Assembly (NCBI GenBank): GCA_964372795.1
Contig: CAYJSO010000001.1
Coordinates: 2,993 to 36,687, forward strand
DNA: 33,695 nucleotides
DNA from: an uncultured Methanosarcinales archaeon
GTDB taxonomy: Archaea; Nanobdellota; Nanobdellia; Woesearchaeales; JAGLXL01
Reading direction: 5' to 3'
Part shown: piece after piece, positions 9,001-15,000 of the stretch
Numbering within the stretch: position 1 is the stretch's first letter
Layout of the letters: each line of letters begins with the position of its first letter
Program-made: the position numbers

Positions 9001-12000
9001 CAGCTTCCTGCGAAGTGAAATTATACACCAAACCATAATCCTTTTCCTGCTCGTTTGTGTAGCCCCTCATCGTATTTGCAATATACACAGCCGGCACTCC
9101 CAAACAAGCAGCTTCCGAAGCAAGCGTAGCGCTCTCACCAGCGCAAAGCGCAGCAAACGCAAGCAAATCCAATAATTTTTCTGGTTTTATTTTCAACCTA
9201 TATTTCTCAAATTCATCTGGCAGCTTTTTCTCAGAAGTTATAACCACCTTTGCATATTTCTCCAATTCTCTAACAAAACCCAACTTATCAGCAATTCCAC
9301 GAGCACCAACATCATGGCTCGACTGCCATGAAACAAATCTAACAACAATGAACTTCTCACTCAGCCTTAATCCTGTTTCCCTTAAAACAGAAACATCCGG
9401 CTTAAAATATTTTGGATTCAAATAAGCTAGCTCATGATAGCTCTTGTGTGTAATATGTTTTCCTTTCACAGATGCATTAAAGCTCGTTGACGTAATATAA
9501 GCATCTGCAAACCTCTGCACCCAGCTATTAACAGCAGTCGCAGTCTCATTGTTATAAAACACTAGAGCTGGCTTCCCTAACAACTTCCCAACAGGCACAA
9601 TACTGGGCCCCATGCATCCAATCAAAATATCCGGCTTGAATTTTCTTGCTATGTTAAATAATTTCCAGGTGCGAGACAGCCACTCAAATAATAACCCCAC
9701 CTTGCTTTTACTAATCCTGCTTATCGGAACAAAAGAAATCTCATAAGCTTTCAGCAGCTCAAAAGTAACATCTTTCTGCCTAGCAGTAACAAGCACTTTA
9801 TGCCCTTTGCCTTCCATTATCTTGATAAAATTCCTGAAAAAATGCACATGCGCCGGATGCAGAATATCAACTAGCAGCTTCATTTTTCCCTCTTACTCTT
9901 TCTTTAATCGCCGGAAAATTATAAACAAGCAAAATTATCGTCGATATCAGATAAGTAAAAAACAAAGATATCAGATAAATCCCGGCGCTGACAGGCCCGA
10001 TCACCCCTGCTAGCCTATACAAATAAACAACGAGCCCTTCCCTAATCCCAAGCCCGGAAATTGAAATAGGAATCAAGCTGCTCAAAACACCAATTGAATG
10101 TATAGACAAAACAGTCAAATAACCAACTTTATATCCAAAGCTTACAAATATCTGCTGCATAACCAAGCCCATAGCCCCCCACAAAATAATCGTAACAATA
10201 AAGTCAAGAAGCAAAGCTTCCTTCCTCTCCTTCCAAAGCTTGTCCACAGTTGCTCCAAAGCCTTCAAAATGCTTCGCATACTTTCTTAAGACAAAAGTTC
10301 TGACAAAAACTCTTACTTTTTTAACAAACAAAAGCAGGACTACCCCAACTAACAGCAAAAACAAAAACAAAATAAACCTAATCGCTACATCAAATTCAAA
10401 GAAAACAAAAAACCCGTACAAAGAAAACCCAAGCAGAACAATGAATGTTATCAGCTTATCAATTATCATAGCAGAAGTGCTCACTCCATAAGAAACTTTA
10501 TCTTTTAAAAAATATACCAATGACAGCTCCCCAAATTTCCCGGGCAGAAAGAACCCAAATGAACGTGAAACCAAATACTTAGTTAGCAATTCTTTAAATG
10601 GAACTTTAACATTAACAGCATTAAAAATTATCATTATATTAACAATCGTAAAAAATATCATTATAACCGGCAACAAAAGAAATAAAAACAGGCTGGAAGC
10701 GTTAACTTCATAAAAAACTTTTAACAATTTATTTAAATCAATCTTATAAATCAAAAACAGCAAAGCAGCTACTCCAACAAGCAATCTGAATAACAACAGC
10801 CAAGTGCGCTTTTTCATTTTAAAAATTATTTACAATATGTAAATCGTTCCTCATTCCATTATTTTTGATATTGTAAATCATTTTTCACCTCATAATCTGG
10901 TATCGGTTAATAAACTATATAACCCTGGATTTCGGCTTTCTAATTCAGCCAAAAGCTCTGAGTTGATTCTATCAATTCTTTGCCTTGTCTCTGCTGAATC
11001 CACTACTTTAATATCTTTCTTTGTAGCCCAAACTTTGCCCGCGTTTTCAGCTTCTATTAATTTGCTTTCAAGCATTTTAACAGCCTCGGATGTTAGAGAA
11101 GCTACTTCCAAAATTTCTCTATTCCATTTTTTTCTTCTTCGTCTGCCCATCAAAAATGGAAGCAACATCCTTATAAATCTAACATCTACATCTTGCTCAA
11201 GCTCGCTTTTATACTTTTCTAACCCAGGATTATTCTCTACAACCGAAGTTGCGCCTGCAAAGATATTCAACTGAGGCGTACCAGGCAATTGCTTTCCTGT
11301 CAGCACATCAACAGTAGCTCCATGATAAATATGAACATCTCTAAACGTAAACTCCCCTTCATTGCAGCTGGGCAGATTAGGTGTTAACCCTGTATAAAAG
11401 TTAGTCACTATCAATGCCAACCCGTTATCCAAAACTCCATTTCCGTCCATGCAAACAGAATAACTAGCAATCACGTTTCTTGGAACTGCTCCAAGCTTCA
11501 ACATCTCCTTCATTAGAGCAATAGTTATAGGCGCATAAGAAGGGTTGATTCTAAACTCTACAGTGCCTGATGATACATGACAGCCTCTTATCTCTTTGCC
11601 CCCGGAAGCACCCTTTAACTGATTTGTTAAACTTATGCCCGAATTAAAGTCATACGCAGGATTGAATCTCGCAACTTCCTCACTATCAATATGAAACTCA
11701 GCACCAAATGTTGGTGTTCCTTTCAAAGCTTTTTCTACTTTCTTAACTCTGGCATAAAGCCCATCAACTTCTTCTTTTATTGCTCCAGGATCAACGCTCG
11801 CATTCTTTAAATTCAAAAAACGAGCTGCAATTAATTGCCTGCCCCCTATAGTCATGCCACCATCTTGCAGCATGTCAGCTATATCACCAAATCCACTACT
11901 TACGATCCTCATTCTTTCGGCAAGAAGTTGTTCCTTTTTCTTAGCTCTTCTTTCTGTCCACTCATAAAAAGCCTCGCCAGTTCCAACCCCCATAATTAAA

Positions 12001-15000
12001 GGAACCGCACCAACAGCAGTGCAGCAAAAGCCTAAACCAATTTTCGCCCAATATGGTGTCTCAGGGCTTATTTTATCAGAAAAAAAATTTATTATTACAA
12101 AGGCAGGTACAATCCCAGCTACATAAAATGGCCCTTTGTAAAATATCTTCTCAGTCATTTTTTCATCATATCCGCCAAAAACCCAAACAATATCACCTGC
12201 ACTCCAACCAGCATCAGCACTCCGCTAAGCACAACTCTCGGAACTCCTCCAACTCTTCCAGTATACAGCCAATAAAAAAACACAGCTAAACCCAATAAAA
12301 ACCCAAGCCCAAACAAAATTCCACCAGCAAGCCCAAAAAACTTCAACGGCTTGTAATCACGATATATTCTAAAAATATTTATCCAGGCTCTCATAGCATA
12401 CTCAAACGGATTTTTAATCAATCTGCTCCTGCCTTCTCTCTTAGCAAAATAAACTGGCACTTCAGCAACTTTAAACTTTTCCTTAAACGCCCTAATCACC
12501 TGCTCCTGTGTATAAGTATGCCCCGAAGTCATCTCAATTTTAGCAACATCAGCATTAAAAGCCCTAAATCCAGTCTGCGCATCCGTTACCTTTGCATTAA
12601 CGATATTTGAAATTACTTTTGAAAAAGCTTTATTCCCAAATCTCTTCAGCCAATGCATTTGTTCTATATAACCCAAAAACCTGCTTCCCAAAACAAGATC
12701 ATAACCCTCTTTTATCTTCTCAATCAGCTTTGGAATATCCTCAGCTTTATACTGCCCATCTGCATCCGTATGCACAATAACATCCGCTTTCAGCTTCAAA
12801 GCATTCTGCATCTCTGTTCTAAACGCTTCCGCCAGCCCATAATTCTTAGGATGCTTAACAACAATAGCCCCGGCTTCTCTGGCAACCTCTGCCGTTCTGT
12901 CTCTGCTTCCATCATCTACCACCTGAATCTTATAGTTATACTCATTTGAACTTAAAACTCGCTTTATCTCCTCAATAACATGCCCTATTGTTCTTTCCTC
13001 ATTATAAGCTGGAATGCTCACTACTACTTTCATAAAGCCTCTCCCTACCACCCCTTATGCCCATATGCTGCTTTATAGCAAACTATTTATATATGTTTCG
13101 TGGCTTAACCTGGCTGGGGTGGTAAAATAATGCAGTCTATAATACCTGGAGTTAAGCTCGAAAAAGCAAAGAAAGTAGCAACATTTGACTTAAATAAGCA
13201 GCAAAACGGCTATTTAATTGAGCTTTACAAAGGCAATGGAAACAACAGCGAAAAGACTGTTGCTTACTTAACAACATTAAAAGTAGGCGTTTTCAAAGGC
13301 TATCATCTTCATCGTATTCGCTCAGCTCACTATATCTGCGTAAAAGGCAAAATAAAAATCATCCTGTACAAAAACAAGCAACGCGAGGAACATATTCTTG
13401 ACGCAAACAATCCAACGAGACTTTACATTCCAAACAACACGGCAACCGGCCTGCAAAACATAGGCGATGAAGAAGCCTGGCTGATTAACTACCCGGATCC
13501 AGCTTACGACCCAAATCTAAAAGACGAACAGGTTGAATACACACAGGAAGAGCTTGAGAAAGGTGTAGAAAAATGATAACATACGAAAAGGTAATGACAA
13601 GAGATGCGCCATTAATAATAATCGAAGCTTGGTGCACCTGCTTCGACAGCTCAATTCCAGCAGCATGTGGGATCAAATGGCCAACACCAATCTTCGTCTT
13701 TCGAAATGGAGCTGTTGAAAGCCAGCGTCCGACAAGACTTTTCCATGAAGAATTGCCTCCAAAACTCTCCTTGCAGCTTAAGAAACCAGAATACGCAAAA
13801 AACGCTCTCCAGAGTTTTGAAAAATACTACAAATATGCAAAATACCTAAAAGGCATTAAAATTAAAAAAGTTGGCTCAGAAGAAGCACTGAAAGAAATAA
13901 AAACTGCAAGCGACGCTTTCACGCAAGGCGGCGCCGGGCTAATCCTTGGGTACTGGTGTGTAGAGTGGAACAAAAAGGCAGCTGATAATGGAAAAGCTTC
14001 TCTGTTCAGCGAGGAAATAATTGAAGGCGCACGCAAAACAAGGGAAGGCGACACCTTGATGGACAACGCTGTCGAAGCTGTTTACGATTACCTAGACATA
14101 ATCGCAGAAAACGAAAACTGGCCTCGCAGCTTGATGAAATTTTTTACTCTAAAAGAACTGGAAGAATCAATAAAAACAAAAAAACCTGATTCTGAATTAC
14201 TAAGAAAAAGAAAAAATGGCTATATATGCCTCAATGGAAAAGTAGTTCTCGCTAATGAAATCAAAGTGACTCTGCAAAAATTAGGGATAAACATTGAAGA
14301 GCCGGAGACAACACAGCCAACACAACTAGATAAACTTAAAGGATTTTGCGCCTGCCAAGGCTACGCAAAAGGCAAAGTTGCAGTTATCTTCAATAGAGAG
14401 CAGCTTAATAAAATTGAAGATGGCGGCATCTTGGTTGCACCAATGACAACGCCATTATTCATGCCGGCAATGCAAAAAGCTGTAGCGTTTGTCACAGATG
14501 AAGGAGGTCTGTTAAGCCATGCAGCCATCATTGCAAGAGAAATGAAAAAGCCGTGCGTAATAGGCACAAAAATCGCAACACAAGTCCTAAAAGACGGTGA
14601 TCTTGTAGAAGTTGATGCTAACAAAGGCATCGTGAGGAAGATAAAATGAAACTCCTAATCACAGGCGGTGCAGGATTTATTGGATCAAATTTTATTAGAC
14701 ATGTTCTAAAAAAATACACCAATTACAAAGTAATAAACTTAGATAAACTAACTTACGCTGGCAACTTAAACAATTTAAAAGACATAGAAAACAGCACAAA
14801 CTACAAATTCATCAAAGGCGACATCTGCGACGCACAACTAGTAAATGAACTTGCAAAAGACATCGACATAATCATAAACTTCGCAGCAGAAACGCATGTT
14901 GACCGCTCCATAGGCAACCCAGACGACTTCATAAAAACAGATGTTTTTGGAACTTACACTTTGCTTGAAGCAGCAAAAAAATATAAAATAAAACGCTACA

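Follow-up and report, generated by a model that had tools for sequence, protein, structure and literature searches.

A Rare Woesearchaeal Protein Family with a Putative Glutamine-Synthetase Fold and a Probably Membrane-Tethered Member Encoded Beside a Glycosyltransferase

The Locus and Its Four-Gene Unit

The subject of this report is a 422-residue protein encoded in a stretch of 33,695 nucleotides (nt) from an uncultured archaeon placed among the Woesearchaeales (GenBank assembly GCA_964372795.1, contig CAYJSO010000001.1, forward-strand positions 2,993 to 36,687). This whole stretch is termed the window, and coordinates refer to it unless another locus is named. The complete open reading frame (ORF), located from the ORF list and the sequence, occupies 10890..12158 of the minus strand with its stop codon, and belongs to a small unnamed family found almost entirely in Woesearchaeota. 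Its start codon overlaps the stop codon of the upstream gene in an ATGA that can be read directly from the sequence (12155..12158, minus strand), aaaaaATGActgag being the junction where the ATG of the ORF and the TGA of its neighbour have bases in common. This neighbour (12155..13051, minus strand) encodes a family 2 glycosyltransferase (GT2) ending in two hydrophobic helices (PF00535, E 1.8e-26; TIGR04182, E 4.4e-47, under its cut-off). In NCBIfam it comes closest to AglJ, dolichyl-phosphate hexose transferase and PpgS, and because all of them fall under their equivalog cut-offs the gene is, as judged from its sequence, assigned at the level of type, as a polyprenyl-phosphate sugar synthase, and the matches stop short of a specificity call.

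Downstream on the same strand, after a gap of 72 nt, lies a gene for a flippase-like membrane protein of the LPG_synthase_TM / TIGR00374 type (9867..10817; PF03706, E 5.3e-32, over its cut-off), which overlaps by 17 nt with a gene for a GT-B-like DUF354 protein (8861..9883, minus strand; PF04007, E 2.2e-18), the last member of an apparent four-gene unit. The guanine-cytosine (GC) content of the ORF is 0.397, and both GC content and codon usage match those of its neighbours and of the window. A mobile-element origin was looked for by tblastn against phage and plasmid collections with zero matches, and the composition is native. Since homologues are 36-45% identical across about 320 residues, the ORF is, on comparative sequence grounds, a genuine gene. 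An earlier note on this DNA had described a long, well-formed, expressed-looking ORF of 422 residues that is translationally coupled to a polyprenyl-phosphate-type GT2 in a glycan cluster, and both descriptions hold: the first in view of the homologues and the native GC content and codon usage, the second in view of the ATGA overlap and the PF00535 match.

A Small Family of Scattered Relatives

The same note had regarded the protein as an orphan, which is no longer tenable. A word-indexed search returned six relatives at 36-45% identity, and when HMMER was run exhaustively with a profile over 1.84 billion cluster representatives, the family came to 17 proteins in total, each representing a cluster. 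A second word-indexed search with a 16-sequence profile yielded zero new members, and scans of genomes and metagenomes gained only the loci L012, L013 and L014. The family alignment and the column table derived from it hold 16 sequences (alignment A2, preceded by an earlier profile, A1); A2 is too divergent for a pattern scan. As far as the sequences tell, the family is real, very rare and lineage-restricted, and all named relatives are Candidatus Woesearchaeota apart from one. This exception and most divergent member, P0016 (L019, 5585-6697), comes from a bacterial metagenome-assembled genome of Omnitrophota and is 25% identical, with E 1.8e-10 to the profile; its position suggests either inter-domain transfer or a broader but very sparse distribution.

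At the sequence level the protein matches no described family, as the earlier note had also found by eye for its core. Queried with the window protein, Pfam and NCBIfam returned zero matches at E <= 1 and PADLOC zero at E <= 10, while PHROGs gave one chance-level match at E 0.29, and sequence and profile searches of PDB were negative as well.

Variable N-Terminal Regions and a Probable Copy-Specific Hairpin

The conserved part of the family is restricted to residues ~100-422, about 320 residues, a larger unit than the core of ~230 residues that had been proposed from the single translation. What precedes it in the window copy is a probable transmembrane hairpin at residues 5-62 (11973..12146, minus strand), hydrophobic at ~9-27 and 37-60, which cannot be aligned in the family and is modelled by AlphaFold2 with a predicted local distance difference test score (pLDDT) below 50. 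The two hydrophobic stretches noted before are evident in Kyte-Doolittle 19-residue means of 1.69 (residues 5-23) and 2.03 (residues 40-58). The best N-terminal peaks of other members lie at 1.54-1.66 (P0003, P0004, P0006, P0012 and P0016), none as high as in the window copy; that of P0004 falls in a repeat region, and the majority of the family is without a hydrophobic N-terminal segment, so that the window copy alone has a convincing transmembrane segment. Basic residues flanking the hairpin (K4 and K8; RRAKKK at 70-75) suggest, by the positive-inside rule, that both ends and the core are cytoplasmic. A basic helical linker follows (residues 63-97; 11868..11972, minus strand), unconserved in both A1 and A2 and of low pLDDT. 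The probable membrane anchor and the basic linker, both read earlier from the translation, belong to this copy and are not features of the family.

Among the relatives, the long N-terminal extensions are mutually unrelated, and the sole Pfam match among them is to TPR repeats, which span residues ~1-375 of P0014. Tandem repeats of 150-370 residues occur in P0004, P0007 and P0013; those of P0004 (~1-365) and P0013 (~1-300) are Gly/Ser-rich and read SGDVGSI..AG..GL.NS, and those of P0007 (~1-310) are helical and read DLIDRIGYEGL. P0009 and P0015 have next to no N-terminal extension.

The Conserved Core

The conserved unit begins with two helices (residues 98-146; 11721..11867, minus strand; alignment and AlphaFold2), continues into a core of alpha/beta type whose six strands fall into two beta-alpha-beta2-alpha repeats (residues 147-306; 11241..11720, minus strand; AlphaFold2, column table and Foldseek), and ends in a helical C-terminal region consisting of the helix after the last strand and four more (residues 307-422; 10893..11240, minus strand; alignment and AlphaFold2). 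Thirteen positions are invariant in the family: G105, L109 and E142 in the leading helices, and G152, E154, E201, R203, P206, P226, Y233, G257, G280 and G288 further on. According to the column table, the motifs of the first half of the core are PTFG152xE154hxh[ED]158, [IV]R191xx[DE]194 and E201xR203xN205P206SYAP, and those of the second half are Y233x[VI]N236, F[RK]273D274xH276xY278xG280AT282x[DN]284 and Q296xN298xxxG302. The ExR motif, encoded by the codons E201-F202-R203 (11550..11558, minus strand), is invariant in 16/16 sequences and sits on the third strand of the core, after which come P206 and a helix. In the C-terminal region E321, D323, R327, P334-F-L336, R342 and W345 are conserved. 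Of the RRRRKKW patch pointed out earlier, R342 and W345 are therefore family features and the remainder is not, and the tail that had been taken as heptad-like is instead part of this conserved and confidently modelled helical region.

The conserved polar residues recur at every second residue (i, i+2) on each strand of the column table: E154/[DE]158; R191/[DE]194; E201/R203/N205; N236; [RK]273, D274, H276, Y278 and T282; and Q296/N298. Such alternation is expected if one face of a predicted antiparallel sheet is a binding or catalytic surface.

Predicted Structure and Its Closest Matches

With the family alignment as input, AlphaFold2 gave a full-length model with pLDDT 80-95 over residues 90-422, and residues 145-352 modelled alone reached pLDDT 85.8 and a predicted template modelling score (pTM) of 0.82. 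In both models DSSP assigns strands at 150-158, 194-196, 199-207, 231-238, 275-283 and 290-304. The order of elements is two helices, strand 150-158, two helices, the hairpin 194-196/199-207 and helix 209-222, and then strand 231-238, helix 243-255, the hairpin 275-283/290-304, helix 317-336 and four further helices, which in the models amounts to two beta-alpha-beta2-alpha repeats and a helical tail.

Three Foldseek searches put ligases of the glutamine-synthetase fold on top, if weakly, and the unknown fold that had been supposed for this protein is probably not one. When the full model was compared with PDB, 19 of the 20 top matches were either glutamine synthetases or Dop, a depupylase, and the best was 7tf6_A (E 1.5e-3, probability 1.00, template modelling score (TM) 0.30). 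Against the viral library BFVD, the named top matches of the full model were nearly all phage proteins annotated as 'Amidoligase enzyme', with E from 1e-2 and TM 0.2-0.29. The core model compared with PDB gave first the Dop structure 9cku_G (E 8.2e-4, probability 0.96, query TM-score (TMq) 0.34), and its matches also include Dop 7oy3, glutamine synthetase 5dm3 (TMq 0.39), YbdK 1r8g (TMq 0.32) and the arginine kinase McsB. Glutamine synthetase, Dop, YbdK, amidoligase and McsB share one common fold, that of glutamine synthetases and guanido kinases.

Fit to the Carboxylate-Amine Ligase Superfamily

The core of carboxylate-amine ligases has been described as six strands in the order 2-3-1-4-6-5, with a helix behind each of strands 3 and 6 and four further C-terminal helices; the sheet is saddle-shaped, and its concave face bears the active site (Iyer, Burroughs, Aravind 2008; PMC2588565). 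The same study lists the motifs of the superfamily: strand 1 bears Ex[EH] (GhExE), strands 2 and 3 bear acidic residues, strand 4 bears [HD]x[NH], the loop preceding strand 5 and strand 5 itself have an Arg each, and strand 6 bears Ex[RK]xxD, which is [QH]x4D in PafA (PMC2588565). It also reports Pup ligases with inserted transmembrane helices, that is, membrane-anchored members of the superfamily (PMC2588565). In their number and their order along the chain the strands and helices of our models, with helices 209-222 and 317-336 and four more, fit this description exactly. The motifs fit it in part. The acidic residues of strands 2 and 3 are present if strands are mapped collinearly ([DE]194 in 10/16 sequences and E201 in 16/16), [RK]273 stands just ahead of the fifth strand in 14/16, and strand 1 has G152xE154 and, instead of the second residue of its motif, an acidic residue at +4 ([ED]158 in 13/14 of the sequences aligned there).

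We therefore propose that the protein is a divergent enzyme of the glutamine-synthetase fold, probably a carboxylate-amine ligase dependent on ATP, that is membrane-tethered in this genome, a reading which rests on predicted structure and to which we give a probability of about one half. The core at ~100-422 would be a highly divergent version of the fold shared by glutamine synthetase, gamma-glutamylcysteine ligase and PafA-Dop; its conserved sheet face may bind Mg-ATP and a carboxylate, the likely chemistry being acyl-phosphate formation followed by amide formation, and in this genome the two-helix hairpin would keep the core at the membrane, on its cytoplasmic side. If the fold holds, the family would be an unnamed branch of the superfamily of carboxylate-amine ligases, one that sequence searches do not detect, residing in poorly understood archaea with reduced genomes. 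Its motif layout would be unlike that of all described branches and would bear on how catalytic residues are redistributed within the duplicated glutamine-synthetase fold.

A number of results weigh against this proposal. All TM-scores are below 0.4 (0.22-0.39 for members of the ligase fold), there is a single Foldseek match at E <= 1e-3, and the core-only search mixes ferredoxin-like domains (nucleotide cyclases, ACT, GGDEF) among the ligases. In the searches by sequence, hmmscan, run for each of the 16 members on Pfam, PHROGs and PADLOC, found no ligase family and TPR only, at the N-terminus of P0014; in Pfam, Amidoligase_2 (PF12224), Gln-synt_C, GCS2, Pup_ligase and COOH-NH2_lig were absent for the 16 members even at E 10. 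PDB searches with the single protein, with profiles A1 and A2 and with a profile of the 41-residue ExR segment returned chance-level matches or none. Comparison of the family with Amidoligase_2 by hhalign was not significant (E 0.03-0.4); against a 25-sequence Amidoligase_2 alignment assembled from homologues of phage tf gp21, A2 gave E 0.37, and 0.19-0.42 with trimmed inputs. The motifs, as read in the 16-sequence alignment, are incomplete as well. GhExE on strand 1 is cut to GxE, position 156 being variable (F/Y/A/C/H/S/L) next to the invariant G152 and E154. The [HD]x[NH] of strand 4 is absent, the strand reading Y233-[SA]-[VI]-N236, and H276-x-Y278 lies on the fifth strand. No Arg is found within the fifth strand, the invariant or near-invariant Arg residues being R191, R203 and R327. 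Ex[RK]xxD is absent from strand 6 (Q296-L-N298-I-F-A-G302), and the sole ExR (E201-x-R203-x-x-P206) is on strand 3. The window copy itself departs from the consensus twice, with H194 where 10/16 sequences have D or E (codon 194, 11577-11579) and C236 where 12/16 have N (codon 236, 11451-11453); these changes could reflect altered specificity or relaxed function of the membrane-tethered copy. Lastly, an all-against-all BLAST of the neighbours in 12 loci found no recurring neighbour family, a small Pup-like ORF included, with the exception of the synteny between L004 and L013, a NAD-epimerase that L001 has in common with the window, and a HicAB pair in L020 and L021; for the family as a whole, the context offers no clue to function.

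Comparison with Individual Ligase Families

Among the individual families, PafA/Dop offers the best single structural match (9cku_G), the same count of strands and helices and known membrane-anchored variants, and the last strand of our family has Q296 as its first conserved residue, like the Gln in the [QH]x4D of PafA. That said, there is no sequence similarity, GxE stands in place of GhExE, no Asp lies four residues past Q296, no Pup-like small gene recurs beside family members, and PafA/Dop belong to Actinobacteria while the present family is from archaeal DPANN.

Glutamine synthetases (types I-III) top the Foldseek list of the full model and would share the fold class, in which one side of an antiparallel sheet carries the active site with its Glu and Arg ligands. 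The E. coli enzyme carries SIRIP...RIEVRFPDP..NPY, presumably its strand-5/6 region, which resembles IR191 and the ExR on the first hairpin of the family. They differ in that TM is ~0.25-0.39 and the family has a much smaller core and is without the N-terminal beta-grasp domain, E-x-E, H-x-H and the oligomerisation elements. For GCS2/YbdK (1R8G), the family consensus IRP[CS]...GT.EFRI resembles YbdK 226-240, DIRPSPHFGTVEVRV, which we take to be the Arg and ExR motifs of strands 5 and 6; in our family the corresponding segment lies on strands 2-3 and not on 5-6, and the likeness is not significant. It emerged from segment hidden Markov models compared, with shuffled controls, against E. coli GlnA, PuuA, YbdK and GshA and phage tf gp19 and gp21, where YbdK 226-240 was the one suggestive match (shuffle p 0.007, not significant over 30 comparisons). 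Amidoligase_2 (PF12224) provides the top named matches in the viral library, and in both families a G[ST]VEFR strand leads into a helix (GSVEFRGS in Amidoligase_2). On the other hand, the amidoligase invariants ExExE, DGSLR and HxH are missing from our family, hmmscan is negative, and the typical neighbours seen in phage tf, GATase and gamma-glutamyl cyclotransferase, are absent beside family members. As far as these sequences go, the ExR likenesses to glutamine synthetase, YbdK and Amidoligase_2 represent either a non-collinear mapping, with residues redistributed between the repeats, or coincidence.

Other Readings of the Core

The incomplete set of canonical motifs could also mean that the family has kept the fold and lost the ligase chemistry, the core now serving as a binding scaffold or adaptor that variable N-terminal domains recruit to different partners, here the membrane. 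The interaction-type modules of some relatives, with TPR repeats for P0014 and tandem repeats for P0004, P0007 and P0013, and the lack of conserved metabolic neighbours agree with such a pseudoenzyme. Yet three Glu and one Arg are invariant, and H, Y, Q, N, D and T positions nearly so, at just 22-45% identity, and the pattern of every second residue on the strands is what an active site that is being maintained typically shows, more than a scaffold, and we consider the loss of catalysis unlikely.

The ferredoxin-like matches raise another alternative, a palm- or cyclase-like nucleotidyltransferase or cyclase in which E154, [DE]194 and E201 bind two metals and the substrate is a nucleoside triphosphate. 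Soluble guanylate cyclase, adenylyl cyclase and GGDEF proteins are indeed among the matches of the core model (2wz1_A, E 5.9e-3, probability 0.57), and the first four strands follow a beta-alpha-beta-beta-alpha-beta order. Their probabilities and TM-scores (0.20-0.28) are, however, under those of the ligases, and they are near-absent with the full model and absent in the viral library. Pfam gives no cyclase or GGDEF match even at E 10, and neither the metal-binding Asp pair nor a GG[DE]EF hairpin is in the alignment. Guanido kinases have been classed with ferredoxin-like kinases (PMC1079889), and because the glutamine-synthetase/guanido-kinase fold itself has a ferredoxin-like core, cross-matches of this sort are expected. 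We regard a cyclase-like enzyme as doubtful.

Genomic Context and the Proposed Link to the Glycosyltransferase

The earlier note had read the coupling as the sign of a new-fold enzyme or scaffold tied to the GT2 and acting on a polyprenyl-phosphate sugar or a lipid-linked glycan. The ATGA overlap, the four-gene unit with a flippase-like protein and DUF354, the copy-specific hairpin that puts the protein at the membrane and the large glycan cluster of the window all speak for such a role, as does locus L001, where a NAD-epimerase adjoins the homologue and a GT2 lies ~3.5 kb away. A survey of ten other distinct loci (L001, L004, which is syntenic with L013, L005, L006, L007, L012, L014, L019, L020 and L021) gives a different picture: a GT2, flippase-like or DUF354 gene is adjacent to the homologue in 0/10. 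Neighbours are cysteine desulfurase/Fe-S genes, beside the adjacent NAD-epimerase, in L001; Asn-synthase-like, DUF371, PUA and cyclophilin genes in L004 and L013; subtilase and endonuclease V in L005; an Lhr helicase in L006; proteins without an assigned family in L007; Ile-tRNA synthetase in L012; and a phosphoglycerate-mutase-type enzyme in L021. Most contexts consist of housekeeping or toxin-antitoxin genes. In L005 and L007, too, the start of the homologue overlaps or nearly abuts the stop of an unrelated gene upstream, for endonuclease V and a 197-residue protein respectively, and overlaps of this kind are normal in these compact genomes. The ATGA overlap thus shows co-expression with the GT2 in this genome and no functional link at the level of the family. 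Since most members are without a membrane segment and the fold is probably not new, the proposal as a whole seems improbable. A role with polyprenyl-phosphate sugars in this genome is a local possibility, the coupling being peculiar to it among the loci compared, and annotating the gene as part of a conserved lipid-linked-sugar pathway is unwarranted. A spurious or unexpressed ORF, for which nothing more speaks than that it is unannotated, is effectively refuted by conservation, given homologues in at least 17 clusters with invariant residues, a confident AlphaFold2 core and native codon usage.

Because the family is so rare (17 clusters in ~1.8 billion representatives), its biological role is probably accessory. 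As for what a ligase might do at this locus, the amidation of a uronic-acid carboxylate on a lipid-linked glycan can be imagined, because the protein would be membrane-tethered, co-expressed with a dolichyl-phosphate-sugar synthase and encoded in a cluster with a UDP-glucose dehydrogenase (6380-7708); this is speculation to which the comparative context lends no support. Uronic acids amidated with threonine are known from N-glycans of methanogens (PMC11407970). The boldest version would have an undescribed, nearly DPANN-only group of glutamine-synthetase-fold ligases with motifs redistributed between the repeats (the Arg and ExR on the first hairpin) and interchangeable N-terminal targeting modules, the present copy being tethered to the membrane, co-produced with a dolichyl-phosphate-sugar synthase and a flippase-like protein, and using an amino acid or amine to amidate a uronic-acid carboxylate of a lipid-linked glycan. 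We hold this to be a long shot; if true, it would supply the enzyme for the amino-acid-amidated uronic acids of archaeal N-glycans.

Toxin-antitoxin modules (HicAB, PIN/MazE and NTP_transf_2/HEPN) lie a few kb or less from family members in five loci (L020, 10010-10439; L021, 3599-4071; L004, 3931-4516; L019, 2348-3044 and 3778-3963; L001, 11154-12172). Homologous HicAB pairs directly adjoin the gene in two unrelated loci, L020 and L021, and a restriction-modification pair stands 2 kb off in L020. The family may merely occupy variable regions of the genome. A role in a defence system, which these neighbours brought to mind, was set aside as PADLOC was negative.

Other Genes of the Window

The wider window is a surface-glycan gene cluster. 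Besides the UDP-glucose dehydrogenase it holds two nucleotidyltransferases and several epimerases/dehydratases (RmlA/B being among the genes), an FdtA-like isomerase, a DegT aminotransferase, a hexapeptide acyltransferase, a second GT2, a PMT_2 enzyme of the GT-C type, AlgX-type SGNH proteins, a carbamoyltransferase and a Wzx-type flippase. A 358-residue protein on the plus strand (13573-14649) carries the mobile domain of phosphoenolpyruvate-utilising enzymes, with its swivel His, in the C-terminal ~75 residues (PF00391, E 3.3e-26), and its residues 1 to ~250 are without a Pfam match. The start codon of this gene shares bases with the stop codon of the FdtA-like gene (13573-13576), as its own stop codon does with the start of the RmlB-like gene (14646-14649); a lone swivel domain within a dTDP-sugar operon is unusual. 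Two further plus-strand ORFs have no Pfam match, one of 779 residues (27924-30263), which overlaps at its stop with the Wzx-type flippase gene that starts at 30260, and one of 219 residues (4324-4983). In the middle of the glycan cluster (17626-19773, plus strand), two bPH_2 (bacterial-PH) proteins of 164 and 550 residues are encoded in tandem, the longer one with three copies of the domain.

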